A stretch of DNA of 64,000 bases from a bacterium (GTDB lineage: Bacteria > Gemmatimonadota > Gemmatimonadetes > Gemmatimonadales > Gemmatimonadaceae): NCBI GenBank assembly GCA_027484025.1, contig JAIXTI010000287.1, positions 5,137 through 69,136 on the forward strand. Reading direction: 5' to 3'. The position numbers and the translations under genes are program-made. Within the stretch, counting starts at the first letter, position 1; the number at the start of each line of letters is the position of its first letter. Positions 1,923-63,377 of this stretch are shown here, one piece after another. Below the pieces are notes generated by a model that searched no databases, was not told where the DNA came from, and saw only the letters and a program-made list of their open reading frames with translations.

Positions 1923-1940
1923 ACACTGATTCGCCACGTC

Positions 1941-4471: not shown

Positions 4472-4527
4472 GCGTCGCCGGTTCACATCGTTTCGTCACT
4501 GCACGGCCGGTACGCGCGCCGCGAAGA

Positions 4528-6144: not shown

Positions 6145-6230
6145 GCGGCGATGAAAGCGACAGGTGGAAGAGGTCGTTAAAATGTAATCTCTTAGGAGCG
6201 ATCTCCACCCGCTGACTGCAACTCTCTTCC

Positions 6231-7334: not shown

Positions 7335-7734
7335 GCGGATTTCGGCAGCCCCGTATACGTCCGGCCTCATTCGCCGTGGCATTGCTGCGCATAACCGGCA
7401 TGGGTGGCACCGCCGCTGAGTCGCGCACGAACACGGGCATGTTGCACGTCGTGGTGATCTCATCCGCGGTCACGGAACTCACGGTATCCTGATTGGGTAC
7501 TGCGGCCACCATTGCCCGCAGCGTCACCGAGTCGATGAGGACGGAGCGACGCAGCTGCCCCGGCGGCGTGGCCACGGAGAGCGAACCGGCGTACTGCTCG
7601 AGCGGCAACCTGCGCATGAACAGCGCAGACGAGGGCGGTGCCTGACGCGTGAGCGGAATGGTCTGTGCCTGCGCGGTGCTCGCGGCGCTGGCGAACAGTA
7701 TTCCGATGGCGAGAGGCCAATGGCGTGAAGTCAT
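7318..7734 (-). CDS. Hypothetical exported protein
   Basis: Signal peptide (WPLAIGILFASAASTAQA); two Cys near the C-terminus. Confidence 0.55.
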   Translation of the reverse strand: MTSRHWPLAIGILFASAASTAQAQTIPLTRQAPPSSALFMRRLPLEQYAGSLSVATPPGQLRRSVLIDSVTLRAMVAAVPNQDTVSSVTADEITTTCNMPVFVRDSAAVPPMPVMRSNATANEAGRIRGCRNPLNGSR

Positions 7735-13314: not shown

Positions 13315-13500
13315 GACAGCCTCGGAAGACGAAGGGGACAGACACCGCATGACAGGCGGTGGATCGTAGGCCAAGCTAGTGTTGCACTTCGTTCCGTCCT
13401 CAACATGTCAACACGTTACGGCTATTGCACTTGGCCACCTGGTCCGCGCGAGGAGTGTCCATGACTTCCTCCCCGCAGTTCTGCGGCGTAGCGTTCAGGC

Positions 13501-24535: not shown

Positions 24536-25615
24536 ATGTCTCAACCGACGCAGGGGGAAGACGATCTCCGCTGGCTGGAAGCCACCCGGCTTGTCGCTGG
24601 TGGACTCGATGAGTCCGTTGTCTCACCGGCGCGCGCCTGGTTGCTCTCCACCGCGGAGGGTCGGGCCGCTCTTGAAGAGGCCCAGCTCGCATGGACCGAA
24701 GCAGCACCGCTCGCTGCGATGCCTAGCGTCGCGTGGGACACCGATCAGACCATGCGGCGGTTTCAGGCAGCCCGCGCCGTTGATGCGGCCTTCCACAGAT
24801 CGGTTGGAGTAGCGGCAGACGCACTGCCGGCAAGAAAGTCGGCTCGAGTTGGTTTTTCGCACACCGTTGCGCCAGGGGGCATTCGCTGGTGGGGCTTGGC
24901 AGCGGCCGCGACGTTGGCCGTGGCGGTCATCGGAGGGGCCATGTGGCAGCGCCTCGCTACCGTCCGTGCAGACAGGACAGACGTCGCCACCGTGGCCCTG
25001 TCGGCCGCTTCGGGCGCTGCGCCTCGAGCGGTGGCGCTCGCTGATGGTTCACAAGTCACACTGGCTCCCGGTAGTACCCTGCGAAGTGCACCCGGATACG
25101 GCTCGGAGCACCGACTACTCGAGCTCGTTGGCGATGCGTTGTTTACGGTAAAGGCCGGCCCACATGCGTTTCAGGTGCGAACGGGCGACGTGCTCGTGGA
25201 GGACGTGAGCACGTCCTTTGTCGTGCGAGGACGGGACGATGGGGTGCTCGTCGTCGTGGTCGATGGCGCGGTCGTCGTGGGTGCGCGTCGAGATACATTG
25301 CGTGTCGGGACTGGTGGCATGGTCGCGAAGGATGGCCTCATCGCGCCGCTCGATCGGGCGTCGATACGGAGTGCGACGGCCTGGCCGCAGGGTGTGTTGG
25401 TGTTTGCCGATGAACCGTTGCGCGAAGTAGCGCGACGCCTGAGCCGGTGGACGGGGCAGACCTTACGGGTCGACGCGGCGCTCGAGGAGCAGCCGGTCAC
25501 CGTCACCTTCGACGGTGAGTCGCCGAGCGTGATGTTCGAGGTGCTGGCCACCACGGTGGGGGCGTCGCTCGAGTCAACGCCCTCTGGGTGGAGGCTTCGC
25601 CGCAATTCACCATGA
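24536..25615 (+). CDS. FecR family anti-sigma/transmembrane transducer
   Basis: N-terminal W-containing helices, a TM segment, LADGSQVTLAPGS..R, and C-terminal W..G.LVF.DEPL.EV...L.R. Confidence 0.88.
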   Translation: MSQPTQGEDDLRWLEATRLVAGGLDESVVSPARAWLLSTAEGRAALEEAQLAWTEAAPLAAMPSVAWDTDQTMRRFQAARAVDAAFHRSVGVAADALPARKSARVGFSHTVAPGGIRWWGLAAAATLAVAVIGGAMWQRLATVRADRTDVATVALSAASGAAPRAVALADGSQVTLAPGSTLRSAPGYGSEHRLLELVGDALFTVKAGPHAFQVRTGDVLVEDVSTSFVVRGRDDGVLVVVVDGAVVVGARRDTLRVGTGGMVAKDGLIAPLDRASIRSATAWPQGVLVFADEPLREVARRLSRWTGQTLRVDAALEEQPVTVTFDGESPSVMFEVLATTVGASLESTPSGWRLRRNSP

Positions 25616-28065
25616 CCGCATGCAGCTGCTGGGCACGACGGGTGATGATCTGTGCGGCGCTGATGCTTCTGGTTCGCGACGCCGATGCGCTGCCACGTCC
25701 TCGAGGCGACAGGCGCGAGTCACCGTGTCGGGGGGACGAGTCGTCCACCGGTCGTAGCGCATGGCAGCTTCATCGCGTGCCGTTGATTCAGGCGCTGCAG
25801 GACATCGCTGTACGGGCTGGCTGGCGGGTGTCGTTCAGTAGCGAAGCGCTGCCGGACACACGTGTATCGGTGTGGTGCGAGCCGTTTGATGGACTCGCGG
25901 CCGTGCGAGTCGTGCTTGCCGGGACGCGACTCCGCGCGGTGCTGCGCGACGGACTGCTGATCGTGGCGCCACCCGCCGAGGGGCGACGCCCAATTGATGG
26001 AGAGGAATGGGCGCGCCTGCAGCACCTGCCGATGCAGCGAATCGAGGCGCAACGCCCAGCGTCCTCTTCGCTCCTCACCTCCGTCGTCACGGGCGCCGGT
26101 GCGGCCGCGACCGTGATCGACGCCAACGGTTCGCTCACGCGTGGTGAGCTGTCGGTAGGCGAAACACTGCGCGGGCAGTTGCCCGGATTGGCGGCCTGGG
26201 ATCGCGGCGCCGGGGCGCTGCGCATCGCCAGTGTACGCGGTCGGGGGGCAGACGGTGGCGCCGGGGTGAAGATATTCATTGATGGCATCGAAGCCGCCGA
26301 CCCCTCATCGGTCCTGGCGCTGGATATGCGCAGCATCGCCCGGCTGCAGTGGTTACCTGGCGGCGCCGGCGCCTCGGTGTACGGGACCGACGCACTCGAT
26401 GGCGTGCTCGCGATCAGCACCCGGGCCGCGTCTCGTGATAACGACTCGGCGCTCTCCCTCGCGTCGTTGCGCCTCGGGGCCGCCGGTTCGCGGTTGCAAC
26501 CGGGCTCCTTGTGGTCGATCGACGGCGCAGCGTCCAGACGGTGGGTCCGCACGGTAGGCAAACGCGACGACGGCGCCGGCCACGTGTCCCCGGCGTTTCG
26601 TCTCGCCTCCGGGGTGACCGGCTCGTTTGAGCAGCAGGACGTACCATTCGGTATCATGCCGATCCGCGTGGCGGGTGTCGCATGGTCGGCGAGCGTCGAC
26701 GCGAAACGTTGGCGTGCACAGCTCAACGTGCGCGGCGCCGCCGGCCGACAGTTTCTCGCGTTCGAGCCGATCCCGGCTGTGCCGAATACCCACAGCCGAT
26801 CCGCGCCGGCCAGTGCGCCAGCGCTGGACGAGGAGCGGGTGCGCGATGGACACGCCGGTGTGTCGCTGCACTGGGGCGGGTCCCGCGCAATGCACGCGGT
26901 GCAATTGGCCGTGTCCTACTCCAATCGCGAGGCCGGCAGCGTGGCGCAGCGTCGCTCGATGCTCGACAGCATTCGCGTGGCCTGGCGCGGACCCGTGCAA
27001 CGAACGACTGCCCGATACCGCAGCGAAGTCCCCCTAGTGGGCACGGCGCTGGCGCTGTCGCTCGCAGGTGATGCCGGATATCTGGTGCGCACGGCACCGG
27101 ACAGCAGCGGTTTCGCCAACGCGCTTGGAGACAGCTCGATCGCACAATCCCTGGTGGGTGGAAGCGCCATTCTCCAGGCGACGCACTCACGCTTGCGCTG
27201 GTCCGCGGGTCTGCGAAGAGAGTGGAATAGCGCGGTGGGGCGGGACGTTCGCTGGTTCTGGCTCCCGTCCGCCGGGGCGCAATTCGATATGCCGGCACTC
27301 GGCGCGCTCGCCTCACGTCTGCGCGTGGCGTATGGCAGCAGCGCGCGCGCGCCCGCGCCTTCGATGAGTGCGGCGCGAAGCACGTCCCGCTTTCTGCAGC
27401 GGGCGAACCCAACGCTACCTGGCGAGCGTCAGCGGGCCGCCGAAGTTGGAGTAAACGGCGTATTCGGCTCGGCGGCAACGCTCGACATCACGGCGTATCG
27501 CCAACGCACCGAGGGCTTCACTCAACTGGTGGCCACGGGGCGCATCGACACGGTGGACGGGGGGCTGCGGCGTGAGCTTCAGTACGGCGTGCTGGGAACG
27601 GTCGAGGCACAGGGACTCGAGTTCAGTGGCACATGGCGCACCAGATGGGGAGAGGGGCGCGGGAGCGGGACGCTGCTGCGCTCGCGCGTCGTGACGCTGA
27701 CGCCAGAGTACCGAGGCGTCTTGTCTGTAGGAGCCGAGCCGCTGGAGGCCCCGCAACGCAACGGTGCCGTATCGTGGACCACGCGCCGCGGGAAGAATCA
27801 GTTGACGGTGGGCGCCAGTGTGATTGGCGCATGGCGGACGGCGGCGTGGGGATGCGTACTCTCCCGCGACGCCGGTTGTGACGCGAATACTCCCGTCATT
27901 GTCCCCATGGTCGCCCGCTGGAACGCCACATTCGAGGGCGCGCCGTTGGCCGGGTGGCGATGGCGCGTGCGCGGCGAGAACCTCAACGACAATCAGCGGG
28001 TGGACGGGAGCCCCGGACTCATCAGGCCGGGGCGGGCATTTTCCCTCGAGATTGGCCGTTGGTGA
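25612..28065 (+). CDS. TonB-dependent receptor/transducer with STN-like N-terminal extension (divergent)
   Basis: ATGA overlap with fecR; STN-like PLIQALQDIA..AG..VSFS; plug FIDGI...YG.DA.DGV..ISTR; barrel-like C-terminus. Confidence 0.78.
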   Translation: MTACSCWARRVMICAALMLLVRDADALPRPRGDRRESPCRGDESSTGRSAWQLHRVPLIQALQDIAVRAGWRVSFSSEALPDTRVSVWCEPFDGLAAVRVVLAGTRLRAVLRDGLLIVAPPAEGRRPIDGEEWARLQHLPMQRIEAQRPASSSLLTSVVTGAGAAATVIDANGSLTRGELSVGETLRGQLPGLAAWDRGAGALRIASVRGRGADGGAGVKIFIDGIEAADPSSVLALDMRSIARLQWLPGGAGASVYGTDALDGVLAISTRAASRDNDSALSLASLRLGAAGSRLQPGSLWSIDGAASRRWVRTVGKRDDGAGHVSPAFRLASGVTGSFEQQDVPFGIMPIRVAGVAWSASVDAKRWRAQLNVRGAAGRQFLAFEPIPAVPNTHSRSAPASAPALDEERVRDGHAGVSLHWGGSRAMHAVQLAVSYSNREAGSVAQRRSMLDSIRVAWRGPVQRTTARYRSEVPLVGTALALSLAGDAGYLVRTAPDSSGFANALGDSSIAQSLVGGSAILQATHSRLRWSAGLRREWNSAVGRDVRWFWLPSAGAQFDMPALGALASRLRVAYGSSARAPAPSMSAARSTSRFLQRANPTLPGERQRAAEVGVNGVFGSAATLDITAYRQRTEGFTQLVATGRIDTVDGGLRRELQYGVLGTVEAQGLEFSGTWRTRWGEGRGSGTLLRSRVVTLTPEYRGVLSVGAEPLEAPQRNGAVSWTTRRGKNQLTVGASVIGAWRTAAWGCVLSRDAGCDANTPVIVPMVARWNATFEGAPLAGWRWRVRGENLNDNQRVDGSPGLIRPGRAFSLEIGRW

Positions 28066-51666: not shown

Positions 51667-52845
51667 TTACTTCGCCGCCTTGATCAACCGCTCCTGCACC
51701 GCGCGCAGCGGCAGCGTGGGTGCGCCGGTGATGTTCCACGCGTTGAACACCACGACCATGTCCTGATCGGGGAACGCCATGGGGAACTGCCCGCCAAAGC
51801 CCGAGCCGGCCCAGATGAGCTTGTCCTTCTGCACGGGATTGCTGTACAGCCACCACTTGTAGCCGTACTGCGGCGCACCGGCGCGCGTGCTGGTGGCGAT
51901 GTGCGGCGTGACCGATTCGCGCACCCACTGTTCAGACACAACGGTTGCACCGTTCCAGCGACCACCCTGCAACCACAGCTGCCAGATGCGCGCGAGGTCA
52001 CGCGCTTCGAGGTAGAGACCGCCCTCGGTATCGATGGTGCCCGACGGCGTGCGCTTCCACTGCCAGTTGGTAATGCCCAGTGGCGCAAACAGATGACGCG
52101 CGGCGTACTCCTCGATGTCCACACCGGTGGCGCGAAAGAAGATGTGCGCGAGCAGCGCGCTCTCACCGCTGCTGTAATTGAACTGTGTACCGGGTTCGCG
52201 CATCATGGGCCGGTCGATCGTGAACTTGACCCAGTCCGGGCTGGCCTCGAGTGCGCCCGCCGTGTTGCGCGGATCGCTGTACGGAATGCTTTCGTTCCAA
52301 TCGAAGCCGCCCGACATCGTGAGCAGGTGACGAATGGTGATGCGCCGCTTGCGATCATCGAGGTTCGCAACCGTGGTGGTGTCCCAAAACTTGAGAATGG
52401 GCGTGTTGATGTCCGGGAAGTCGCCGCGCGTGATGGCGGCACCAATGACCGCCGAGGCCACCGTCTTGGACACCGACTGCAACGTGTGCAGTGTGCCCCG
52501 CCGGTAGGTGGGGTGCCACCACGGGTTGAAATAGTTGAACGGGCCCGTGGGGTCGTGCGAGTTGTTGAGCGACGACGTCGAGCGCAACGAGTCGCCGTAG
52601 ATGCGGTCGTAGTCGCGCGCGTACGACTTATCCATCACGATGGTGCCGCGACGGATGACGAGCATGCGATCGATGTTGCCGTACTTCCCCGCCGTGATCT
52701 CGGCGTGCAGGCTATCGAGCACGGCGGCGTTGAGGCCAAGCTTTTGCGGCGTGGAGGTGGGCCACGTGAACGGCTTGGGCTGAGCGCCAAGCGACGAGGC
52801 CATGAGCAGCGCGAGCGCGGCGGCGGGGAGGGAGAGGCGGGTCAT
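51667..52845 (-). CDS. Serine hydrolase (beta-lactamase class C/NylB-like), exported
   Basis: SVSK (SxxK), IRHLLTM, PG..FNYSS, QYGY.WW, G.GGQ. Confidence 0.9.
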   Translation of the reverse strand: MTRLSLPAAALALLMASSLGAQPKPFTWPTSTPQKLGLNAAVLDSLHAEITAGKYGNIDRMLVIRRGTIVMDKSYARDYDRIYGDSLRSTSSLNNSHDPTGPFNYFNPWWHPTYRRGTLHTLQSVSKTVASAVIGAAITRGDFPDINTPILKFWDTTTVANLDDRKRRITIRHLLTMSGGFDWNESIPYSDPRNTAGALEASPDWVKFTIDRPMMREPGTQFNYSSGESALLAHIFFRATGVDIEEYAARHLFAPLGITNWQWKRTPSGTIDTEGGLYLEARDLARIWQLWLQGGRWNGATVVSEQWVRESVTPHIATSTRAGAPQYGYKWWLYSNPVQKDKLIWAGSGFGGQFPMAFPDQDMVVVFNAWNITGAPTLPLRAVQERLIKAAK

Positions 52846-52899: not shown

Positions 52900-53069
52900 A
52901 CTGCCACTGCGGTTCGGGTTTGACCTGCTACTGCGGTTTTGGACTGCCACCGCGGTTCTGGACAGCCACGGCGGTTGGGGAACACTGCCGTTGGGGTTTG
53001 TGCGGAAGGCGCCGTCCGGCTTCGCCGGCTCGGCGCCTCTTTGGTGGTTGGGGTACTGCTACTGCGGTC
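52900..53069 (+). repeat. Degenerate 15-bp tandem repeats (ACTGCYACYGCGGTT) with embedded GC hairpin
   Basis: Units at 52900, 52924, 52943, 52962, 52984 (short) and 53055; hairpin at 53007-53038. Confidence 0.75.
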
Positions 53070-53074
53070 CTAAA

Positions 53075-53107
53075 GGGGTCAGAGTCCTTTTGCGATGTCG
53101 TTGAACG
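53075..53107 (+). repeat. GGGGTCAGAGTC element, half copy with core GTTGAACG
   Basis: Left arm plus core at the same offset as the 59791 copy; right arm absent. Confidence 0.75.
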
Positions 53108-53111
53108 CCGG

Positions 53112-53582
53112 TTACCGCAGTGTAAGCCGCACCCCTTGCAGCGGCTTCGGAGTCTCCGGCGCGGGAGCCGGTGCCCCCGTGGCATCAAACAGCTTGGCAT
53201 TTTCGGTGGCGGTGAGGGAATCGCCCTGCACCCTGATTTGCATCGTGAGCTCTAGGCGCCCCGTGTACTGATGCGTGGTGCGGTCGGCCGATAGCTCCAC
53301 CCATTTGGCTTCAATGCGGTCGCCCCGATTTATCCAGATGCCCTTGCCGTCACTGTCGCTGCTGCGCGCATTGCCGGCATCCGGATTGGCCTGCTGCATG
53401 GTGCCGTCGCCGTTGAACACGTACAGGTGGTGCGGAAACGGCGCGTTCGGGTCGTGCACCAGCCAGGTCCCCACGATCGGATGCACCGCGGCCGCGTGTT
53501 CGCGTTCGTCATCGCACCCCACCGCGCTCGTCGTGCCGACCAACAGCAGTGGGAAAATGACGAGCTTGCTGAATGAGCGCAT
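53112..53582 (-). CDS. Hypothetical lipoprotein
   Basis: Lipobox SAVGC; beta-rich body (IVGTW, F..DGT, G.G.W). Confidence 0.65.
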   Translation of the reverse strand: MRSFSKLVIFPLLLVGTTSAVGCDDEREHAAAVHPIVGTWLVHDPNAPFPHHLYVFNGDGTMQQANPDAGNARSSDSDGKGIWINRGDRIEAKWVELSADRTTHQYTGRLELTMQIRVQGDSLTATENAKLFDATGAPAPAPETPKPLQGVRLTLR

Positions 53583-53654
53583 GACGCAGCGGGTGTTGGG
53601 AATGGAAAGGGTGAACACTCCCACAACATACGGTGACGGCAGCGCGCTTGCCCC

Positions 53655-54962
53655 CTACACCCAGCTCCACCCCAGCGCCGCGATGCACGTCACCACGAGG
53701 GCGACACTGACCCACCCCAACCGGTTGGCCGACGGCGTGGCGCGCAACGGCCCCATGATCGTTGCGTCGGCGCTGAGTCGCATCAACGCAATCAGATGCA
53801 GCGGCAGCACCACCGCGTTGAGCACCTGACTCGAGTAGATGAGCGAGATCAGCGGCAGTCCGGGGAGCGACACGACACTCACCGCCGTCACCGTCAACGC
53901 CACAAACGCGGCGTAGAACCACTGGAAGTGCCGCGCATCGAGATCGAGCGACGCCGGCTCTCCGGCCCCCTCGGCGATCGAATAGGCCGTGGCGATGGGA
54001 ACGATGGCGGCAGCGAGCAGCGACGCACCCAGCAACCCGGCGCCGAAAAACACCGTGGCAAACGAGCCTGCCAGCGGACGCAACGCCGACGCGGCATCGG
54101 CGGCCGTTTCAATGCGCACTCCCGCCTGGTGCAGCGTCGCCGCACAGGCCACCGCGATCGCGAGCCCGATCACGCCCGTGAGCACCGACCCGATGATCAC
54201 GTCCCAGCGGGCAAAGCGCAGCGACTCCGTGGTGATGCGCTTGTCGACCGCATACGACTGAATGAACGCCAGCCCCCACGGCGCGAGCGTCGTGCCCAAG
54301 GACGCCGTGAGTGCCACCCAGCCGGCGTCGCTCGTGGGCAGACGCGGAATGAGCGCACCGGCAACGACCTCCGACCACACGGGCCGCGCGAGTACGCCAT
54401 CGACGATGTACAGCGCGAGCGTCGACGAAATCAGCAGCAGCACATGCTCGACGCGATGGAACGAGCCAAGCAGCACGACGAGCGTGATGAGCACCCCGGC
54501 CACCGGCGCACTGATCCACGCCGGCACCCCAATGAGCGACCCGGCGGCGGCAATGCCGGCGTACTCCGCACAGATGGTCCCGAAGTTCGCGAAGAGCAAC
54601 AGCACGACCGACAGATAGCCCCAGTTGCGTCCCCATTTCTCGCGGATGATGCCCACGAACCCCTTGCCGGTGGCCGCGCCAATGCGGACCGCCACCAGAT
54701 GGAACTGCACCAGCAGCACCGTCGAGAGGGGAATGATCCAGAGCAGCCGGTAGCCGTGATCGGCGCCAAGGACCGAGTACGTGGTGATGCCAGCCGGATC
54801 GTCGTCGGAGAGCCCCGCGAGCAAGCCGGGACCGAGCACCACCAGGAACGCCGCCAGCGCCGACGCCCCGGCCGCGCGCAGCGTGGCGAAGCGCGCCGAG
54901 AAACCGCGGCGCGTGTGCGCAACACCATGTGGGGTGACGTCCGGCGGCTCAGCGCGCTTCAA
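53655..54962 (-). CDS. SLC11/NRAMP-related divalent cation transporter (NRMT-like)
   Basis: GPGLLAG.SDDDPAGITTYS, GY.LLW, GTTLAPW...IQS, SQVLNAV.LP; about 11 TMs. Confidence 0.88.
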   Translation of the reverse strand: MKRAEPPDVTPHGVAHTRRGFSARFATLRAAGASALAAFLVVLGPGLLAGLSDDDPAGITTYSVLGADHGYRLLWIIPLSTVLLVQFHLVAVRIGAATGKGFVGIIREKWGRNWGYLSVVLLLFANFGTICAEYAGIAAAGSLIGVPAWISAPVAGVLITLVVLLGSFHRVEHVLLLISSTLALYIVDGVLARPVWSEVVAGALIPRLPTSDAGWVALTASLGTTLAPWGLAFIQSYAVDKRITTESLRFARWDVIIGSVLTGVIGLAIAVACAATLHQAGVRIETAADAASALRPLAGSFATVFFGAGLLGASLLAAAIVPIATAYSIAEGAGEPASLDLDARHFQWFYAAFVALTVTAVSVVSLPGLPLISLIYSSQVLNAVVLPLHLIALMRLSADATIMGPLRATPSANRLGWVSVALVVTCIAALGWSWV

Positions 54963-54976
54963 GGAGTCCGCTTCAA

Positions 54977-55096
54977 GGGGTCAGAGTCGTGGGCATCGCC
55001 GGAGGGTCGGGGGGCAACAAGGGGTCAGAGTCGTTTGCATGGCCGGAGGGTCGGGGGGCAACGAGGGGTCAGAGTCGTTTTTGGGGTCAGAGTCGT
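54977..55096 (+). repeat. Tandem array of four GGGGTCAGAGTCGT arms
   Basis: Arms at 54977, 55021, 55065 and 55083; two near-identical 44-bp units. Confidence 0.85.
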
Positions 55097-55642
55097 TTAC
55101 CGCGCTGGCTCCGCGCCGTCGCCCGGACGATCAATACGGTACAGCACGTGGGTGGACGGCGTACCGTGCACCACGAAATCATCTTCGCGTGCAAAAACAG
55201 CGCCGATTTTTTCGACGGCCTTCCGTGAGCGCCAGTTGGTTTTGCCAATGTGAAACCACACCGTGTCCACGTACTGAAAGGCGTAGTCGAGCATCAACCG
55301 CTTGAGCTCGCCGTTCGTCGTGCCGCCCCAATGCGTGCGCGCGAGGAACGTAAAGCCAATGCAGACCGAGCGCTCATCCGGTTTGCTCTCGTAGTAGCGC
55401 GAGGAGCCGATGATGCGCTCAGTGGCGCGATCGATGACCACGAAGGCGGAGCCCGACGCCAGCGCACTCGCAAAAAATCCGGCTTCGAAGACCGGGCGCA
55501 GGTAGCGCGTGGGCTCCGGATGAATCGCCCAGATCTCAGGGTCGGCCGCGGCCGCGTACAGCATCTCGAGATCGTCCGCGCGAAGCGGACGCACGAGCAG
55601 CGTCGGGCCGACGAGGGTCGGTTGCCAGTCAGGACTTTTCAT
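55097..55642 (-). CDS. GNAT N-acetyltransferase
   Basis: QPTL.G....RPL, IIGSSRYY, IGFTFL.R..WG...N.ELK.LML, N.RS.KAVEKIG. Confidence 0.9.
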   Translation of the reverse strand: MKSPDWQPTLVGPTLLVRPLRADDLEMLYAAAADPEIWAIHPEPTRYLRPVFEAGFFASALASGSAFVVIDRATERIIGSSRYYESKPDERSVCIGFTFLARTHWGGTTNGELKRLMLDYAFQYVDTVWFHIGKTNWRSRKAVEKIGAVFAREDDFVVHGTPSTHVLYRIDRPGDGAEPAR

Positions 55643-55654
55643 GGTGCTCGAACG

Positions 55655-56197
55655 CTACGGCTTCACCGCACTCCACGCCGGACACGGCGGTGCCGTCCCC
55701 GCGCCGCGCGGTGCGCCTTCGGGACGTGGCAGCGTATCGGTCACCTGCATGACTTCGACGTCGAAGATGAGTGTGGCACTGGGCGGAATCACCGGCGGGC
55801 GTCCCTTCTCCCCGTACCCCAGCTGATACGGAATGATGAGGCGACGCGCGCCGCCAACACGCATCCCTTCAAAGCCGGCATCCCACCCGGCAATGACGCG
55901 CCGGAACCCCTGCGGAAAACTGATGGGGTTCTTGGCCGCACCAGCGTTGGTCGTGTCGCGCGACGAATCGAACTTCTTGCCGTCGGTCGTCCACCCGGTG
56001 TAGTGCGCAAAAATGCAGCTCCCCGCTGTGACCGGTGCGCCGGTGCCGACGCGCGTATCGACGGCACTCAACGTAAAGAGCGCGCGCGGCTTGTCGTTCA
56101 CCGCGGGGATGGGTGCGGCGTACTTGGGTGCGCGGGCGCAGGCGGCAATCAGCAACGTCGTGAGCGACAGCGCGAGCGTTGTGGTGACGTGCTTCAT
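55655..56197 (-). CDS. FKBP-type peptidyl-prolyl isomerase, lipoprotein
   Basis: HYTGW..DG.KFDSS, VIAGWD.G..GM.VGG.R.L.IP..LGYG, IPP.ATL.FDVE; lipobox IAAC. Confidence 0.93.
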   Translation of the reverse strand: MKHVTTTLALSLTTLLIAACARAPKYAAPIPAVNDKPRALFTLSAVDTRVGTGAPVTAGSCIFAHYTGWTTDGKKFDSSRDTTNAGAAKNPISFPQGFRRVIAGWDAGFEGMRVGGARRLIIPYQLGYGEKGRPPVIPPSATLIFDVEVMQVTDTLPRPEGAPRGAGTAPPCPAWSAVKP

Positions 56198-56394
56198 GCG
56201 TCGTTCTCCACGCGCGCCGCCATGATCTCCGCTTTCTCCCGAAAGCTGACCGACGCGCCGCATTGCGTGCAGCAGTAGTTGCCAGTGCGCTCCCCCATGT
56301 CGTACTCCCGCGAGAAAGCAGGATGGGCGCACGGCTTGTCGCCCCACACCCGCTTGAGCTCAGTGGCCTTTTTCTTCTGCACGAATACCCTCAT
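56194..56394 (-). CDS. Small putative Zn-binding protein (66 aa)
   Basis: C.HP...YCCTQCG; ATGA overlap with the FKBP gene. Confidence 0.65.
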   Translation of the reverse strand: MRVFVQKKKATELKRVWGDKPCAHPAFSREYDMGERTGNYCCTQCGASVSFREKAEIMAARVENDA

Positions 56395-56468
56395 GGAGCG
56401 TGAGTGAGACGACCGCCGCCCAACGGAGGCGCGCCGCCAGCGAAAGCTAGCGGCACGCGCCGCCGCAG

Positions 56469-57359
56469 CTACTTCACCTGCTGCCGGAACAGCGCCACCG
56501 TGCGGTCCCACGCCAGCTTCGCCGCCGCAGCATCATAGCGCGGCGTCGTGTTGTTGTTGAAGCCGTGCTGCGTACCGGCATACAGGTGCCGCTCGTACTT
56601 CACGCCGGCGGCTTTGAGCGCCGCTTCGAACTCCGGCCAACTCGCGTTGATGCGCGGATCGTTCTCGGCCGACTGAATCATGAGCGGCGCCTTGATGTTC
56701 GGCACATCGGGCAGATTGGGCGCGGACCCGTAGAAGGCCACACCAGCCGACAAGTCGGCGCCGAGTTTGGTGGCGAGATAATTCACCATCCCACCGCCAT
56801 AGCAGAAGCCCACTGCGCCGATTTTTCCGGTGCACTCCGGGCGGGCCTTGAGGACGGCAGCGGCCGCCATGAAGTCTTCGCGCGTCTTGGCCTGATCGAG
56901 CTTGGGGAACAGCTCACGTGCCTTCTCTTCGTCGCCGGGATAACCACCAAGCGGGAACAGCGCGTCGGGAGCGAATGCCACGAAACCGTCGGTGGCCAGT
57001 CGACGCGCAATATCCTCGATGTGCGGATTGAGCCCGCGATTCTCGTGAATGACGAGGATGCCCGGTGCGCGGCCGCTGCCACTCGGCTTGGCGAGATACC
57101 CGCGCATCGTGCCGTAGCCGTTCGGCGACGCGTACTCGAGGTATTGCTGTTCGATGCGCGCATCGTCGTGCGCGACCGTCTGCGCCTCGAGAAACTTGGG
57201 GCTCAACTGTTCCAGCAACATCGCCGCCGTCACGCCGCCCACGGCATACTTGGCCGCACGATCGAGGAAGGTGCGACGGTCGATACCACCGTGCACGTAC
57301 GCGTCGAACAGGATGAGTAGATCCTGATCGAAATCGTGTGCGGACTTGTGCGGGTTCAT
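56469..57359 (-). CDS. Dienelactone hydrolase family protein (YghX-like)
   Basis: RRTFL twin-arginine-like segment, HENRGLNPHI.D, GFCYGG, HGF.N..TPRYD. Confidence 0.92.
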   Translation of the reverse strand: MNPHKSAHDFDQDLLILFDAYVHGGIDRRTFLDRAAKYAVGGVTAAMLLEQLSPKFLEAQTVAHDDARIEQQYLEYASPNGYGTMRGYLAKPSGSGRAPGILVIHENRGLNPHIEDIARRLATDGFVAFAPDALFPLGGYPGDEEKARELFPKLDQAKTREDFMAAAAVLKARPECTGKIGAVGFCYGGGMVNYLATKLGADLSAGVAFYGSAPNLPDVPNIKAPLMIQSAENDPRINASWPEFEAALKAAGVKYERHLYAGTQHGFNNNTTPRYDAAAAKLAWDRTVALFRQQVK

Positions 57360-57433
57360 GGGCGATCTCGAAGGGAGTGAGAAGGATGCGGAGTGGAACG
57401 CACGAGTGATCGCGAAGCGGGTGCTGCGGGATC

Positions 57434-57715
57434 TCAGCGCGCGCCCAAGGTGCGCACGGCCAGCGGGAGCACCTCGTTGCACCGGTGCGTGATGTTGCGT
57501 CCGGCCGAGTCTGGGAAGGAAGCGAAATCGACCGACATCGAATCGCGCCGCGTGAGCGCTTTGCCGTAGGCTTCGCGGCACTCGGCGGCGCTGTGCATAC
57601 CGTGCACCGGTGCCAGCGCCAACTTGCTCACCAGGACGACGATACCGAACACGAGCGCTACCACGCCGGTGCGACGCAGCAGGCGCGATGGAAGCGAAGC
57701 AGATGAGTCAAACAT
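57434..57715 (-). CDS. Hypothetical small membrane-anchored protein
   Basis: One TM segment; two Cys (ECREAY...RCNEV). Confidence 0.5.
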   Translation of the reverse strand: MFDSSASLPSRLLRRTGVVALVFGIVVLVSKLALAPVHGMHSAAECREAYGKALTRRDSMSVDFASFPDSAGRNITHRCNEVLPLAVRTLGAR

Positions 57716-57811
57716 GGATTCTCCCGCGTGACAGGACGCTGCAATCGATCGTGTCTGAACTCGGTTCAGGCCGAATTTGTCACATAGCGGCACGACTTGG
57801 CGAGGGGCAAA

Positions 57812-57866
57812 GGGGTCAGAGTCGTCGATTGGGCGTTCAACGAGTCCGCTCAACGACTCTGACCCC
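57812..57866. repeat. Complete 55-bp inverted-repeat element
   Basis: GGGGTCAGAGTCGT + 27 nt + ACGACTCTGACCCC. Confidence 0.9.
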
Positions 57867-57880
57867 TTGTGTTCCGCTCG

Positions 57881-58390
57881 TCACCGCGCGTGAAGCTCGC
57901 GAAGCACCTTCTGAATGAACGGCCCCTTCTCCACGGAGTATACGGCTTTGTCCCATTGTGTGGCGGCCGCCACGCGAAGCTTCTCGGCGCGGTAGTCACG
58001 TACGAGTTGTGGGTCGCTGCGCAACGCGTCACGAAACATCAGCTTCTCCACCCAGGCGGGCGCAGGTAGGATGTACAGGTGCAGCTGCACCGCTCGCCGG
58101 CCGTCCACGTCTTTCACGTAGTAGCGACGATCGGGATCATCGCCGTGCGGTCCGCGATAGGCATAGCCGAGCAGCTCGAGCGGCGCGATGCACGCGTTGG
58201 CGGCATGCTCGTTGGCTACGGCAACGGCGATGTCGAGCACAGGCTTTCCCAGAAGGCCCGGTACGGCCGTGCTGCCCACGTGCTCGATCGCGATGAGATG
58301 CGGAGCAGCGACCTGGCTGAGGCGCACCGCTTCGTCTGCGAAGCGGGCCGCCCACAGGCCATCGTGTTCAATGAGGCGGAGGAGTCCCAT
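57881..58390 (-). CDS. GrpB/UPF0157 nucleotidyltransferase-like protein
   Basis: IEHVGSTAVPGL..KP.LDI, LH.Y, FRD.LR, Y..EK. Confidence 0.88.
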   Translation of the reverse strand: MGLLRLIEHDGLWAARFADEAVRLSQVAAPHLIAIEHVGSTAVPGLLGKPVLDIAVAVANEHAANACIAPLELLGYAYRGPHGDDPDRRYYVKDVDGRRAVQLHLYILPAPAWVEKLMFRDALRSDPQLVRDYRAEKLRVAAATQWDKAVYSVEKGPFIQKVLRELHAR

Positions 58391-58403
58391 TGGTGGGAGA
58401 AAA

Positions 58404-58453
58404 GGGGTCAGAGTCGTGCCTGGGAATGAAGAGTAAATGGGGGTCAGAGTCGT
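58404..58453 (+). repeat. Two direct GGGGTCAGAGTCGT arms, 22 nt apart
   Basis: Arms at 58404 and 58440, between divergent grpB-like and araC genes. Confidence 0.85.
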
Positions 58454-58527
58454 GGCGTCCAAGAGCAAGAGGTCGGCAGAAGGGCAGGGATGTCGGCCGT
58501 GTCGTCGGCACCGCAGTTTTCGGGCGT

Positions 58528-59307
58528 ATGCCCAAGTCGCCTCCCACCAACCGCTACGCCCCGGTCCCCGATGGTTTCCCCATTCGGGACGCGTCGGTGC
58601 GCTACACGGAACTACCCCCCCCGCACGATCTGGCGGCCGTCGTACACTGCTTCTGGGAACTGCGCACAGTCACCGAGCTATCGGAAGACTTTCTGTATCA
58701 CGCGCTCCCCGACGCGTGCGTGAACCTGCTGTTCAATCGACTGGACCCCGCCATTGCCGGCATTACGGCGCTGCACACATCGGCCACCACGCTCAACTTG
58801 GGCACGGTGTTTCACTATGTGGGCGTGCAGCTCTTTCCGGGGGCGTGGCACGGCGGCGGTGACGAACTCACCGACCGCTACGTGGGCACGCCGTATCAGG
58901 GGGCGCTCCCGCTCGTCGCAACAAACGCAAAGCTCGCGGGGCTCGCGTTCCCCGACGCCACACACCATCTGGCCGAGCTGGTGCGATGGTGCGTCGCGCA
59001 GCAATACGTGGTCCCCAACCCCGTCACGGCGCGTATTCTGTCGCAGTTGCATGCCATTCGGACCGTGGCCGATATGGCGACGCTCGTGGGGGTGACGCCC
59101 AGACAGCTGCAGCGCACGCTCAAGCGACAAACGGGATTTGCGCCGCACGACCTGCTCAAGGTGTTGCGCGTACAGCAATCGTTCCGCCAACACTATCTCG
59201 ACTTGTACGCCGATCAGGCGCATTTCATCCACGCCTTTCGGGATGCCACCGGATACACACCCGTGCAGTACCGCAAACGCTTCGGCGGCTCATCGCACAG
59301 CGACTGA
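58528..59307 (+). CDS. AraC family regulator (DUF6597-type N-terminus)
   Basis: Y.E..PP..LA..V.CFW, LPD.C..L, RQLQR...GF.P, YADQAHF...F....G.TP. Confidence 0.88.
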   Translation: MPKSPPTNRYAPVPDGFPIRDASVRYTELPPPHDLAAVVHCFWELRTVTELSEDFLYHALPDACVNLLFNRLDPAIAGITALHTSATTLNLGTVFHYVGVQLFPGAWHGGGDELTDRYVGTPYQGALPLVATNAKLAGLAFPDATHHLAELVRWCVAQQYVVPNPVTARILSQLHAIRTVADMATLVGVTPRQLQRTLKRQTGFAPHDLLKVLRVQQSFRQHYLDLYADQAHFIHAFRDATGYTPVQYRKRFGGSSHSD

Positions 59308-59316
59308 TCGCGACAC

Positions 59317-59349
59317 GTCCGATTTGTACAATACCGCGTCGTGCATGCT
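59317..59349 (+). promoter_or_regulatory. Possible AraC-activated promoter of the VOC gene
   Basis: AT-rich GTCCGATTTGTACAATAC, then CATGCT 17 nt after GATTTG; between araC and voc. Confidence 0.3.
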
Positions 59350-59392
59350 GGTTAGCCTCCCAACTCCACCTGAACCCTTTGGAGACTTGGTG

Positions 59393-59773
59393 ATGACGAT
59401 GCACAACGCGATTGGCTGGTTCGACCTGTACGTGGACGACCTGGATCGGGCCGCGAAGTTTTACGAAACGGTGTTCCAGCAGACGCTGGAGCCCATGGGT
59501 GACCCCACCGGCGAAACGGTCATGCGGAGCTTCCCCGGCAACATGCAGGCATACGGGGCCGCCGGGGCCCTGGTGAAGGCGCCGCACGCGCGCCCGGGGA
59601 TCGGCGGTTCGCTGCTCTACTTCAGCGTGGAAGACTGCGCCGTACAGCAGGCGCGCGTGGCCGACGCGGGGGGCACGCTCGTGCGTCCCAAGTTTTCCAT
59701 CGGACAGTTCGGCTGGGTGGCCCTCTGCATGGACACCGAGGGGAACATGTTCGGGCTCAATTCCATGAAGTAG
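59393..59773 (+). CDS. VOC/glyoxalase family protein
   Basis: IGWFDLYVDDL.RA.KFY, YFSVEDC, DTEGNMFGL.S. Confidence 0.9.
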   Translation: MTMHNAIGWFDLYVDDLDRAAKFYETVFQQTLEPMGDPTGETVMRSFPGNMQAYGAAGALVKAPHARPGIGGSLLYFSVEDCAVQQARVADAGGTLVRPKFSIGQFGWVALCMDTEGNMFGLNSMK

Positions 59774-59790
59774 CCAGCCAGTGGCTCAAA

Positions 59791-59845
59791 GGGGTCAGAG
59801 TCGTTTTGCCGACTTGTTGAACGTGCGCGCAACGACTCTGACCCC
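59791..59845. repeat. Complete 55-bp inverted-repeat element (core inverted relative to 57812)
   Basis: GGGGTCAGAGTCGT + 27 nt + ACGACTCTGACCCC. Confidence 0.9.
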
Positions 59846-59853
59846 TTTTGTAG

Positions 59854-61980
59854 CTACGCCCACTTGAGCGTCTCATCCGCAATGGGCAGCGTACGAATCC
59901 GCTTCCCCGTCGCCGCAAAGATCGCGTTGCACACCGCGGGCGCCGCAGGCGGCAGTGCCGGTTCACCGAGCCCCGTTGGCGGTGCCGATGACTTGATGAA
60001 ATGCACATCGACCACCGGCGGCGCATGCTGCATGCGCAGCATCGGGTACTTGTTGAAGTTCGTCTGCGCGGCCGCGCCGCGTTCGATGGTCACTTTCTGA
60101 AACCACGCCGCGCTGATGCCATCGAGCATCGAGCCCTGCACCTGCGCCTCGGCGCCGCTCACGTTCACAATGGTGCCGGCATCGACGGCCGCCGTGAGCT
60201 TCCTGATCGTGAGTTCGCCCGCTTTGCTTACCGCAACATCGGCCACGATGGCTACGTACGCGCCATTCGCAAAGCAGATGGCGAACCCCTGCCCCTCACC
60301 GCGCGGACGCGCTTTGCCCCAGTTGGCCTTCTCGGTCGCGAGCTTCAACACGGCGGTCATCTTGCCGGCGTCAAAACGCGGCGACGCGGGCACAGTCGCG
60401 AGCATGTCGAGCGTAAACGCGAGCGGTTCCTTGCCGGCCGCGTGCGCGAGTTCATCCATGAAACATTGCGTGGCCCACGTGTTGCCGTTGTCACCCGGCG
60501 CGCGCCAGAAGCCTGTGGGAATGCCGCCGCGCAACTTGCTCGACCGCACCGTCGAGCCTGGAATGGCATTGAACGGAAAACCGGTAGCCGACATATCACC
60601 CGGCCCGCCCTGCATTTTCACGAACTCGTCGTTGAGGGCAACGACCTTCCCGGCGCTGTCCAGCCCCGCCGAGAAAAAGTGCCATCCGTTGGAGCGATAG
60701 TTGTCGTGCGCAAAATCCTGTTCGCGCGTCCAGGTGAGTTTGATGGGTGTGCCCGCCAGTCGCTTCGCGATTGCCGCCGCTTCGAGCGAAAACTCGTTGC
60801 TGCCGCGTCGGCCAAAGCCGCCACCCAGTCGCGTGATGTGCACCTTCACGTCTTTCGCCGCGATCCCCAGCCCCTTTGTAACCAGCCCCTGTCCTGTGGC
60901 CGGAATTTGCGTGGGCGTCCACATCTCCATCACACCATCCTTGAACCACGCGGTGCAGTTCTGCGGCTCCAGCGTGGCGTGCGCGAGGAACGGATAGTGG
61001 TACACCGCTTCGACCGCCTTCGCACCAGACGGCAGCGCCGCTGGCGCGTTGGCCTTGGCCAGCGTCACCGCTTGCGCAGCCATGTCCGCGCTGCTCTGCG
61101 AGACTTGTGCCCCTTCGTTCCACTGCACCTTGAGCGCTTTCGTCGCGCTGAACGCATTCCACGTGGAATCCGCGACTACGGCCACACCCGATGGCAGCCC
61201 CGCAATGCCACTCAACACGAACGCATCGCGAACGCCGGGCTTGGCCTTTACCTCATCGAGGTTCGCGCTCCCCACTTCACCACCAAACACCGGACACTTG
61301 GTATACGTCGCGTAGAGCATCCCCGGCAGCTTCACATCAATGCCAAAGAGCGGCGCACCCTTCACGATCTGCCTGTTGTCCACGCCCGCAATACGGGTGC
61401 CGAGCAACTTGAAGGTGCTCGGATCCTTGAGCGAGAGGTTGGCGGGAGGCTGCAGCAGCGCGGCCTTGGTAGAGAGTGCGCCATACGATGCCTTTCGGTT
61501 CGATGCCGCGTGCATCACCATGCCGTCTGCGGTGGTGCACTCGCTCGCGCTCACCTTCCACTCCTGCGCCGCGGCCTCTACGAGCACGGCCCGTGCAGCG
61601 GCGCCGGCGCGGCGCATCGCCATGTAGTTCGCGACCGTACTTCCGCTGCCAACGCTGAACTGACGACCATACGCCGGATTCAAGTCGCCCTGCACGACGG
61701 TCACCTGCTCCCATTTCACATCGAGCTCTTCGGCGATGATCATGGGGAGCGACGTCTTGATGCCCTGCCCCATTTCCGAGTTGGGCGCGACGAGCGTGAC
61801 AGCGCCGCTCGGCGCGATGCTCACGAACACGTTGGGGGCGAAGTCCGCAGCAGGTGCGAGCGCCGCCGTACTCGAGGCCATCGCCTCTGCGGTATCCAAC
61901 GCACTCGCGACCATCAACCCGCCGCCAACCAGTCCACTGATCTTGATGAACTGGCGTCGATCAATCTGTTGGTGAGTCAT
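59854..61980 (-). CDS. Xanthine dehydrogenase family molybdopterin subunit (isoquinoline 1-oxidoreductase beta-like)
   Basis: RRQFIK, SEMGQG..T.LP...[42 protein letters not shown]. Confidence 0.93.
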
Positions 61981-62468
61981 TCGCGCTTCCCGTTAGCTGG
62001 AGTCGTCGTCGCGGCCAACTCGGCGGCGCGCTTGATGCCGGCACGAATGCGTGTGTACGAGGCGCAGCGGCATACGTTGCGCGCCATGGCCGAGTCGATA
62101 TCGGCGTCGGTGGGACGCGGCTTGGCCTTGAGCAAAGCGGCCGCCGCCAGAATCTGTCCGCCCTGACAGTAGCCACACTGCGGCACATCGAGCTCGCACC
62201 ACGCATCTTGCAGCGCGCGCGCTTGCGGTGTGTCGATGCCTTCAATCGTGGTCACGGCCGCCGCGCCCACGGTGGAGATGGGCGTACGACAGGATCGGGT
62301 AGGCACACCGTTCACGTGCACGGTACAGGCGCCGCATTGCGCGATGCCGCAGCCGAACTTGGTGCCGGTGAGCTCCAGCGAATCGCGCAACACCCACAAC
62401 AGGGGTGTGTCGGATTCCACCTCGACGCTTCTGGACGTGCCGTTCACGTTGAGTGTGTACTTGCCCAT
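61977..62468 (-). CDS. (2Fe-2S)-binding subunit (isoquinoline 1-oxidoreductase alpha-like)
   Basis: GTKFGCG..QCGACTV and QCGYCQ.GQI...NVCRC..Y.RI. Confidence 0.95.
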   Translation of the reverse strand: MGKYTLNVNGTSRSVEVESDTPLLWVLRDSLELTGTKFGCGIAQCGACTVHVNGVPTRSCRTPISTVGAAAVTTIEGIDTPQARALQDAWCELDVPQCGYCQGGQILAAAALLKAKPRPTDADIDSAMARNVCRCASYTRIRAGIKRAAELAATTTPANGKRE

Positions 62469-62700
62469 ATGCCGCTCCACGAAATCGTTTCGAGTGTTGC
62501 GCTTGCGCGTGGCTCCCGACAAACATGGCTCGCGTCGCCGTTTTTCGCACGACGAGGAGGCAGACCCCGACGATCACCAGTTGTGCCGTGACGTCATCAA
62601 GGCCGCGCTGTCCCCCGTGGACATTACGCGACAGGCCGAAGCGGAGGATCGTGACTTTCGGCCGTTGCGCCATCACCGCGCATCATGCTAGTTCACACCC

Positions 62701-63210
62701 ATGACCTTCGCCCGCATTGCCGCGCTCCCTTTTCAGGTGAGCGGTAACCATCAGGTCTTTGCCAATGGCACGGTGACCACCACCGAAGAGCGTCGCCACG
62801 GCGTGCTGCGCCTCGAGGGGGCCACGCTCACCGTGCAGTGGCGGGTGGAGCGAAAAATCCAGAAGATCGGTCCGGAAACGCGCACCGATGTCGAGCGCGA
62901 TGGCATGCGTTCTGTCCCGGTGCGCGTAGATCAGCTGGGCGACGCACGCGTCCGGACCCGCGGACGCTGGTTTTGGCGCACCTGGGAGCTGGTGCTCACG
63001 GCGCGCGACCTCTCAGCGTTCGATCCACTCGCCGGCCACGACGGCTTCGCGTTCGAACACCCGGCCGAACTGGTGTTGCCCGTGCGCAGCGCTGACATCG
63101 AGCTGGCACGGGAGTTCGCCTCCGAGGTGGAGCTGGCGGTGGCCGAACTGGCCCTCAGCGCCGCCGAGCACGCCGCGGCACACAAGGCGCTCGGCCCGGA
63201 CGCGACCTAA
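62701..63210 (+). CDS. Hypothetical protein
   Basis: 169-aa ORF with protein-like composition; fills the space between flanking genes. Confidence 0.6.
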   Translation: MTFARIAALPFQVSGNHQVFANGTVTTTEERRHGVLRLEGATLTVQWRVERKIQKIGPETRTDVERDGMRSVPVRVDQLGDARVRTRGRWFWRTWELVLTARDLSAFDPLAGHDGFAFEHPAELVLPVRSADIELAREFASEVELAVAELALSAAEHAAAHKALGPDAT

Positions 63211-63219
63211 AAGCTAAAA

Positions 63220-63370
63220 GGGGTCAGAGTCGTTGATCGCGGTCTCACCACTCCGGCAAAAGGGGTCAGAGTCAAAAAAGGGGTCAGAGTCGTTTTGGCG
63301 GTTCAACGACCCTGACCCCTTTTGGCGCTGACCCCTTTTTTGACTCTGACCCCTTTTTGACTCTGACCCC
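63220..63370. repeat. Nested inverted array of GGGGTCAGAGTC arms
   Basis: Forward arms at 63220, 63262 and 63280; reverse arms at about 63306-63319, 63328-63335, 63342-63353 and 63359-63370. Confidence 0.9.
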
Positions 63371-63377
63371 TTTTGGG

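Follow-up and report, generated by a model that had tools for sequence, protein, structure and literature searches.

A short repeat clustered near one end of a contig from a freshwater, Gemmatimonas-like genome (Gemmatimonadaceae) most probably belongs to a RAYT (REP-associated tyrosine transposase) system. The stretch analysed, hereafter the window, comprises 64 kb of contig JAIXTI010000287.1 (assembly GCA_027484025.1). We put the probability at roughly 0.8 that the repeat copies in it are REP-type (repetitive extragenic palindromic) units and REPIN-like inverted doublets of the RAYT class known as TIRYT, subclass 2.1 or group 1. The 12-nt core of the repeat, GGGGTCAGAGTC, was matched 17 times in the window at no more than one mismatch, always within 53075-63370; dinucleotide shuffling gave an expectation of 0.21, and no shuffle gave 17. 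The 16-mer AAGGGGTCAGAGTCGT, searched at up to three mismatches, recovered the identical 17 copies and left the first 53 kb empty. Allowing two mismatches to the 12-mer added one partial copy (63324-63335) and three chance-level matches elsewhere. A first description of this DNA, made from the letters only (the sequence-only reading), had counted about 18 arms at six sites and none in the first 53 kb, in good agreement with these figures.

The repeat and the gene that it brackets in relatives

One unit consists of the conserved 12-nt core between two short A/T-rich flanks that are in part self-complementary. Its consensus in Gemmatimonads is TTCAA-GGGGTCAGAGTC-GTTGAA(C), with (C)AAA(A) as the 5' flank in the window's own lineage; the gammaproteobacterial consensus is ATCAA(N)-core-GTTGAT. 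We scanned genomes at one per species (596 Gb) with AAGGGGTCAGAGTCGT as the query and obtained at least 116 stretches, while by our own arithmetic about 280 single chance matches to a 16-mer are expected in that amount of DNA. Among the matches listed, multi-copy stretches came mainly from Gemmatimonadaceae and Gammaproteobacteria. They included the chromosome of Gemmatimonas sp. DEX182b, with repeats at four distant places, the gammaproteobacterial carriers Pseudoalteromonas, Thalassotalea, Rheinheimera, Chromatiales and Thioalkalivibrio, and one betaproteobacterial locus (Azoarcus, L095). Dispersal of copies around other genomes, a check proposed in the sequence-only reading, was thereby found. 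Viral contigs gave six single matches only, RNA runs a single case with 6% of the words, and a literature search for GGGGTCAGAGTC primer matches only. In Rfam only microRNA hairpin models below threshold were hit, so the repeat does not belong to any known RNA family.

A RAYT gene encoding a Y1/HuH protein of ~220-250 aa was found in related Gemmatimonadaceae and in many Gammaproteobacteria. Inverted copies of the motif, GGGG outward, bracket this gene in Gemmatimonadaceae loci L036, L058, L066, L118-L120 and L128, and inverted copies also bracket it in gammaproteobacterial loci L001, L015 and L105. The gene had the motif on either side in L058, L036, L066, L105, L118-L122, L126-L128 and L136-L138. 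Units upstream of the gene were on the + strand and those downstream on the - strand in L058, L036, L066, L118-L120, L128/L129 and L105. L058, L066 and L036, which are tblastn homologues, often had two units per side, the downstream unit overlapping the end of the open reading frame (ORF).

As a control for selection bias, we used the gene contexts of homologues picked by protein similarity alone, from a RAYT family of more than 5,900 proteins at E <= 1e-20. Three soil contigs picked in this way (L118-L120) had the same bracketing architecture and a common synteny, including the position of the RAYT. Four protein-picked lineages (L121, L122-L125, L126 and L127) carried TCAAGGGGTCAG.. upstream and ..CTGACCCCTTGA downstream in 4/4 cases, with the second half of the core variable in two of the four. 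The protein-picked homologues P0036, P0058, P0097 and P0115 were 53-59% identical to the L058 RAYT. A gene from a freshwater Gemmatimonas sp. (P0135, L128) has four + and three - units around it, and these have the same A-rich type of flank as the units in the window. RAYT relatives are also plasmid-borne. Their ends include AAAGGGGACAGATCT and GGGGTCAGAGCAAA, and the family-wide motif is therefore GGGG(A/T)(C/G)AG; the full 12-mer, as judged from the sequences compared, is the mark of one sub-lineage common to Gemmatimonadaceae and many Gammaproteobacteria. The proposal of a non-autonomous REPIN-like repeat tied to a RAYT/HuH enzyme is thus supported, since the motif brackets such genes even when the homologues are picked by protein.

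The RAYT proteins match Pfam Y1_Tnp (PF01797), and the catalytic residues H60/H62 and Y120 are invariant. The L105 protein, from Pseudoalteromonas citrea, scored 70.6 bits against NCBIfam REP_Tyr_transpos (cut-off 80) and 23 bits against the IS200 model (cut-off 55). We took TIRYT reference proteins from the supplementary alignment of Di Nocera et al. 2013 (PMC3733652). Full-length identity to psu_2716, sml_1152 and cps_4446 was 43-49% for the L058 and L036 proteins and 46-58% for the P. citrea protein; identity to the E. coli RAYT was about 20%, over part of the length. A phmmer search of the PDB with one RAYT gave no match. With a family profile the best PDB match was 4ER8 (E. coli TnpAREP; E 6e-4), with the HuH and Tyr residues aligned. 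4ER8 was also the best fold match (E 9.8e-9) of an AlphaFold model of P0135 (mean predicted local distance difference test score 86.9), followed by the IS608 and ISDra2 TnpA proteins. The TIRYT class is marked by a helix-turn-helix-like C-terminal extension (Bac_DnaA_C, HTH_23 or HTH_28); in the present proteins an extension of ~80-110 aa, modelled as helices at 158-196, matched no Pfam helix-turn-helix family at E <= 5.

P. citrea L105 holds three units of ~810 bp with inverted copies at their bounds, each coding for a protein of ~240 aa. Within about 4.7 kb (2900-7560) there are three full RAYT genes and a truncated one, and the full copies have in common a conserved leader of ~60 nt that ends in a REP unit. 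This resembles the proliferation of an insertion sequence, unlike the single syntenic copies in soil Gemmatimonadaceae. At L032 594-1973 (Pseudoalteromonas luteoviolacea), a 1.37-kb segment between inverted REP units carries a phospholipase D-like (PLDc_2) gene of 339 aa and no RAYT; the gene may be a passenger, or the flanking may be coincidental. L122-L125 represent a RAYT followed by an unannotated 189-aa gene on 23 contigs, several of which have an IS1595-family transposase gene upstream.

We also looked at contigs from freshwater metagenome runs (X1-X4), two of which, X1 and X2, hold the window's genome. In X1 and X2 there is a contig that matches the conserved part of the L036 RAYT at 81% identity. 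It has a depth of 7.05, compared with 6.6-7.3 for most window contigs, and its loose ends translate to QWMGRKYVVA and VRAPAEFPWS, resembling P0135. These observations suggest that the window's genome has a RAYT of its own.

Copies in the window and their folding

The copies in the window occupy six sites: 53075; 54977/55021/55065/55083; 57812/57855; 58404/58440; 59791/59834; and 63220-63370. All six lie between Pfam-supported ORFs, and a stop codon adjoins five of them, as had been described (intergenic, mostly abutting stops); the 58404/58440 site lies instead between the divergent starts of GrpB and AraC. The surrounding genes, by Pfam, are Nramp, GNAT, FKBP, dienelactone hydrolase, GrpB, an AraC-family regulator, glyoxalase, M28 peptidase, and MoCoBD aldehyde oxidase with its 2Fe-2S subunit. 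By crude gene calls, none of ~32 intergenic gaps in 1-52.8 kb held a copy compared with 4 of 8 in 52.8-64 kb, the remaining two sites falling inside over-extended first-start ORF calls and hence outside this count. The first 53 kb carry kinases, regulators, transporters and hydrolases and no special core block, so the clustering is real and is not explained by gene content. Such clustering (0 copies in 53 kb, then 17 in 11 kb) argues against a DNA uptake sequence or a binding site for a nucleoid or regulatory protein, as do the nested arrays and partial copies, and the occurrence of the motif in distant phyla along with a flanking RAYT gene. A short motif, invariant across species and often present as inverted pairs at gene ends, does recall the uptake sequences of Neisseria, and we hold this explanation to be extremely unlikely.

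The leftmost site is a half doublet on the + strand (53072..53107): one REP unit (core 53075-53086) is followed by GTCGTTGAACG, a partial inner-arm copy, without a right arm, and the whole adjoins the stop of ORF 53112-53624. Four direct units, also + (54974..55096; cores at 54977, 55021, 55065 and 55083), lie between the Nramp start and the GNAT stop; they make up 2.4 tandem repeats of a 44-bp unit and one further unit of 18 bp. Inside the 44-bp unit, at 54990-55017 and 55034-55061, GGAGGGTCGGGGGGC resembles a decayed REP core (9/15 positions), and the array may consist of alternating intact and degenerate units. The first 55-nt REPIN-like doublet (57809..57868, no overall strand; arms 57812-57825, +, and 57853-57866, -) is placed 15 nt 3' of the GrpB stop, and its spacer holds a partial inner-arm copy. 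Between the divergent GrpB and AraC-family genes there are two direct + units (58402..58453; cores at 58404 and 58440). The second 55-nt doublet (59788..59848, likewise unstranded) lies between the convergent glyoxalase and aldehyde-oxidase (MoCoBD) genes and is inverted with respect to the 57812 copy. Finally, an unstranded compound cluster between convergent genes (63216..63374) comprises units at 63220, 63262 and 63280 (+), 63308 (-, one mismatch), 63342 and 63359 (-), together with the partial copy CTGACCCC at 63324-63335.

The sequence-only reading had described 57812-57866 and 59791-59845 as 14+27+14 units with matching inverted cores. This is real: the two are 83% complementary over 60 nt, spacer included. 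Recurrence of the same core at 53089 also stands (53072-53107 is 83% identical to 59788-59823, and is a half copy of the same subfamily); at 63234-63260 a match is present, at a weak 67%. A fixed length of 55 bp was not found, the gap between the two 12-nt cores ranging from 4 to 63 nt over 46 doublets. A 31-nt gap occurs in both window 55-nt units and one orthologue and in no other doublet, and on this comparison the 14+27+14 layout is an accident of the window's subfamily, not a feature of the whole family. The supposed asymmetric, conserved 27-nt core, likewise an accident of the subfamily, reads GA(G/C)TCGTTGAACG and so repeats part of the canonical inner arm GAGTCGTTGAAC; there is therefore no separate functional core. 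What does hold generally is orientation: 46 adjacent pairs in the Gemmatimonad loci and the window are +/- and 1 is -/+, with GGGG facing outward.

Doublets fold well as DNA hairpins (z -5.5 to -14). The doublet at 57809..57868 gives a DNA hairpin of -22.3 kcal/mol (z -5.5) and an RNA hairpin of -46 kcal/mol (z -6.9) with a U run; the doublet at 59788..59848 gives a DNA hairpin with z -6.3, and the cluster at 63216..63374 RNA hairpins down to -78 kcal/mol. Within units only 4-6 flanking bases tend to pair, and the lengths of the A run and the T run on the two sides of a unit are not correlated. Doublets between convergent genes give strong RNA folds on both strands, followed by U runs, and from their folding they may plausibly serve as bidirectional terminator-like hairpins. 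A simple terminator scan misses them because their loops exceed 8 nt.

These folds, with A runs before and T runs after, would also be expected if the copies had spread in the distant past and were now immobile relics kept as bidirectional terminators or mRNA stabilisers, with copy number changing by slippage or homologous recombination. The same explanation accommodates the conservation of cores at orthologous sites, tandem additions of 15-18 nt, which could come from slippage, and the synteny of the RAYT in three soil contigs, which a domesticated gene would show. Against it, 7 of the 17 copies are single or direct and unable to form a hairpin, one site lies in a divergent promoter region, and the doublets were not picked by the simple terminator scan. 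Termination, moreover, needs no 12-mer that is invariant across phyla, and there is a clean 64-nt insertion relative to an empty allele (see below). We consider it unlikely that the copies are relics of this kind.

Two other features of the window were recorded. In the 266-nt gap upstream of a beta-lactamase-family gene (51667-52845) there are five copies of a 14-mer like CTGCCACTGCGGTT (52901-53069), spaced by 19-24 nt with one gap of 93 nt. This 14-mer has no relation to the REP motif and may be an operator or binding site; L029 keeps the last copy, the others being outside the aligned stretch. An 825-aa ORF at 25588-28065, in the most G+C-rich part of the window (0.68-0.69), had no Pfam match at E <= 1e-5.

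Differences between strains and a possible mechanism

Strain alleles were obtained by aligning contigs of runs X1-X4 to the window, and the closest metagenome-assembled genome among the matches listed was CANGXD01, with a coding identity of about 89-93%; the differences given below for the 53075, 54977, 58440 and 59791 sites are against this genome. At orthologous sites the cores are identical while flanks and spacers diverge. Thus the unit at 53075 has an orthologue in L029 with an identical core and diverged flanks, and the doublet at 59788..59848 differs from that of L142 at 0 arm and 4 spacer positions, with the coding DNA 92.8% identical. Copy number varies: the 54977 cluster consists of four units in the window but of two in L029, and X3 carries a 61-nt tandem duplication of the doublet at 59788-59848. 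Both filled and empty sites, which the sequence-only reading had proposed looking for, exist among strains. In X3 and X4, 63198-63377 (180 nt) is replaced by AAACTGA, an empty allele. In X4, 54965-55124 is replaced by 40 unrelated nt with no repeats. In X3 and X4 the Nramp gene and its REP cluster (53655-55101) are jointly absent, with 32 nt in their place. At the 63216..63374 site L142 has a single doublet with an 11-nt direct duplication, CGGCCCAAACT; compared with the empty allele of X3/X4, this amounts to a 64-nt insert plus the 11-nt duplication, and it is the sole clean filled/empty pair.

Breaks in gene order also coincide with copies. Synteny with L115, which is 95% identical to the right, ends exactly at the 58440 unit, and L142 has a different left neighbour gene, with the break at the left edge of the 59791 doublet. 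Synteny breaks of this kind, the joint absence of a gene and its cluster in some strains, and the separation of small accessory genes by copies could point to a site-specific recombinase acting on integron attC-like or dif-like sites and organising single-gene cassettes; a recombination site with an oriented spacer was the alternative offered by the sequence-only reading. We found no support for it. Neither the window nor the neighbourhood of the motif in any locus contains an integrase or recombinase gene, genes lie in mixed orientations, and the distance between arms is not fixed. The 'oriented spacer' is a partial arm copy, and the motif flanks a Y1 transposase gene instead, making recombinase sites a most improbable explanation.

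In close relatives the gene neighbours of the 53-64 kb stretch differ. The corresponding region of the closest relative (L141/L142) carries toxin-antitoxin genes (HigB-like, ParE/PhdYeFM and Unstab_antitox) at 1-3200 and 12650-13715, and has additional REP doublets at 2003-2394 and 16512-16536, as would suit a variable accessory region.

Some units are accompanied by tandem partial copies, in which the final 2-8 bases of the core recur together with 7 or more flank bases. These were found on the outer side of 35/299 units and the inner side of 5/293, with 1.2% of control 7-mers recurring likewise; the copy at 63324-63335 is the example in the window. Their commonest boundaries, GACT|CTGACCCC and GACTCT|GACCCC, recur across species and phyla and bracket the central CT of GACT-CT-GACCCC, suggesting that this is the likely cut region. 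Some units are followed by 'staircases', in which 3' unit pieces plus flank become shorter step by step (L127 3830-3910, L016 3781, L064 5252 and L105 4883; for example ..CTGACCCCTTGATCCCCTACCCCTTGATCCCCTACCCCTTGATCCGCTCCCTTGATCCGCTTGATCC).

Outer-end partial duplications look like excision footprints, the repeats act like terminal inverted repeats whose GGGG faces outward, and the L142 insertion is surrounded by a direct duplication. All three would suit miniature elements moved by a duplication-making transposase (e.g. of the DDE type), the repeat being its terminal inverted repeat and the RAYT link secondary. No DDE gene is consistently near, however, and the genes between inverted ends are all Y1/HuH, with the exception of a PLD-like passenger in L032. 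Flanking direct repeats (8 nt or longer) were seen in 8/67 cases compared with 32/1340 for shuffled partners. Against same-locus controls there was no enrichment (8/63 versus 7/126, p 0.095), and we therefore treat the 11-nt duplication as one unexplained case and not as general evidence. Of the target duplications that the sequence-only reading had suggested looking for, the L142 example is present and a general enrichment is not; movement by such a transposase seems very unlikely.

Under the RAYT interpretation, an enzyme encoded elsewhere in the genome would bind single-stranded DNA at the unit, make its cut within the core or next to it, and rejoin the ends. This scheme is modelled on E. 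coli TnpAREP, which cleaves and rejoins single-stranded REP DNA, and on the C|T cleavage of the E. coli, S. maltophilia and Marinomonas enzymes. The cut would probably fall in the region of the central CT. Units and doublets could in this way be added, deleted, duplicated or moved in trans. Two units with GGGG outward form a long hairpin, and the same arrangement brackets the RAYT gene in relatives. The copies may also serve as breakpoints for changes in gene order.

A further idea, possible though unlikely, is that group 1/subclass 2.1 RAYTs spread repeats in a manner unlike the peel-and-paste of IS200/IS605: cutting at the central CT of the core, making a target duplication of ~10-19 nt, and leaving staircases as excision footprints, with the copies then reshuffling single-gene modules in variable parts of the genome. 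If true, this would be the first sequence-level handle on how group 1, the largest RAYT group, works. These are the most widely distributed RAYTs, yet they have been described without REP-like repeats or with moderately abundant ones. The present lineage offers an invariant 12-nt core, natural filled and empty alleles, and recurrent breakpoints that indicate a testable cut site; the cross-phylum occurrence of the core, the alleles and the breakpoints together make group 1 enzymes experimentally approachable. The repeats also mark a structurally variable region and are a reason why contigs break in assemblies of Gemmatimonadaceae. All this leaves the basic picture of REP/RAYT biology as it was.

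Several points weigh against the RAYT interpretation. A tblastn search found no RAYT homologue in the 64-kb window, as the sequence-only reading had observed for any mobilising gene, and what joins the RAYT-fragment contig to the window's genome is metagenome depth alone. The scan loci were chosen by an exact 16-mer, so motif statistics drawn from them are biased. The folds of single and direct units are no better than those of shuffled sequence (z about 0.3-0.5), and flank complementarity within units is modest, with a mean of 2.95 paired bases versus 2.19 for shuffled partners. Hairpin-induced replication slippage, without an enzyme, could be the source of the staircases. The L142 pair has an 11-nt target duplication, while single-strand transposition of the IS200/IS605 type makes none. 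Among the RAYT studies compared, DNA cutting is not reported for any group 1/subclass 2.1 enzyme. Lastly, the canonical 5' GT[AG]G tag is absent, the unit consensus TTCAAGGGGTCAGAGTCGTTGAA containing neither GTAG nor GTGG; for this reason the element is filed under TIRYT/subclass 2.1 and not under the canonical REPs.

Relation to known systems

Canonical REP, BIME and REPIN sequences, served by group 2/3 RAYTs (E. coli TnpAREP; the REPINs of Pseudomonas fluorescens), resemble the present family in forming extragenic inverted hairpin doublets, in flanking a Y1/HuH gene and in varying in copy number between strains, and 4ER8 is the best structure match. What is expected of REPIN doublets was found: pairs are nearly always +/-, the window copies are all intergenic, and other species have several loci per genome. 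The differences lie in the unit and in the protein. A canonical REP has a G+C-rich stem and is an imperfect palindrome with a stable hairpin, whereas the window family has a 12-nt core between weak A/T flanks, and its single units form no such hairpin. Protein identity to the canonical RAYT is only about 20%, and in the window family a genome can have more than one gene copy (P. citrea has three within 4 kb).

With IS200/IS605 and PATE-type miniatures the family has in common the Y1/HuH catalytic fold and, as would be expected, recognition of single-strand hairpins. IS200/IS605 ends, however, are different hairpins on the same strand, whereas those of the window family are inverted copies of one motif. 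The TnpA of IS200/IS605 is about 130-150 aa long, in contrast to ~220-250 aa for the RAYTs here, and the L105 protein scores below the cut-off of the IS200 model. An integron attC array would have a linked IntI integrase and co-oriented cassettes; the genes called in the window and in the loci include no integrase, and gene orientations here are mixed and arm spacing variable. Integron, CRISPR and uptake-sequence readings were ruled out on anatomy.

RAYT-like TIRYT genes flanked by terminal inverted repeats ('TIRtrons') were described by Di Nocera, De Gregorio & Rocco (2013, PMC3733652). Some TIRtron repeats have GGGGWSAS in common, and some form moderately abundant families of singles, dimers and clusters. 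Quentin et al. (2018, PMC6006769) equated most TIRYTs with subclass 2.1 TnpA-Y1, that is, group 1 of Bertels et al., restated the consensus as GGGG[AT][CG]A[CG], and reported no REP-like sequences near subclass 2.1 genes. Bertels et al. (2017, PMC5581495) found group 1 to be the most widely distributed RAYT group, present on plasmids too and flanked by 16-mers of moderate frequency. The sequence GGGGTCAG of the present repeat fits GGGGWSAS. The sequence-only reading had called the element uncatalogued, which is not supported at the level of the class: repeats with such ends were described in 2013 and placed in subclass 2.1/group 1 in 2018.

The likeness to TIRYT/subclass 2.1/group 1 extends from the protein (43-58% full-length identity and a long C-terminal extension) to the gene, which stands between inverted repeats whose outer part fits GGGGWSAS, and to the repeats, which occur elsewhere as singles, dimers and clusters; both spread across phyla, plasmids included. 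There are also differences. PMC3733652, PMC6006769 and PMC5581495 contain no Gemmatimonad family of the window's type, the gma 794 of Di Nocera et al. belonging to another TIRYT group. REPIN-like doublets are abundant in the Gemmatimonad family, in contrast to subclass 2.1 as published. A further difference is the 12-nt core, which stays the same from Gemmatimonadaceae to many Gammaproteobacteria. The Gemmatimonadaceae repeat family is a new and unusually clear member of the already described TIRYT/subclass 2.1/group 1 class.

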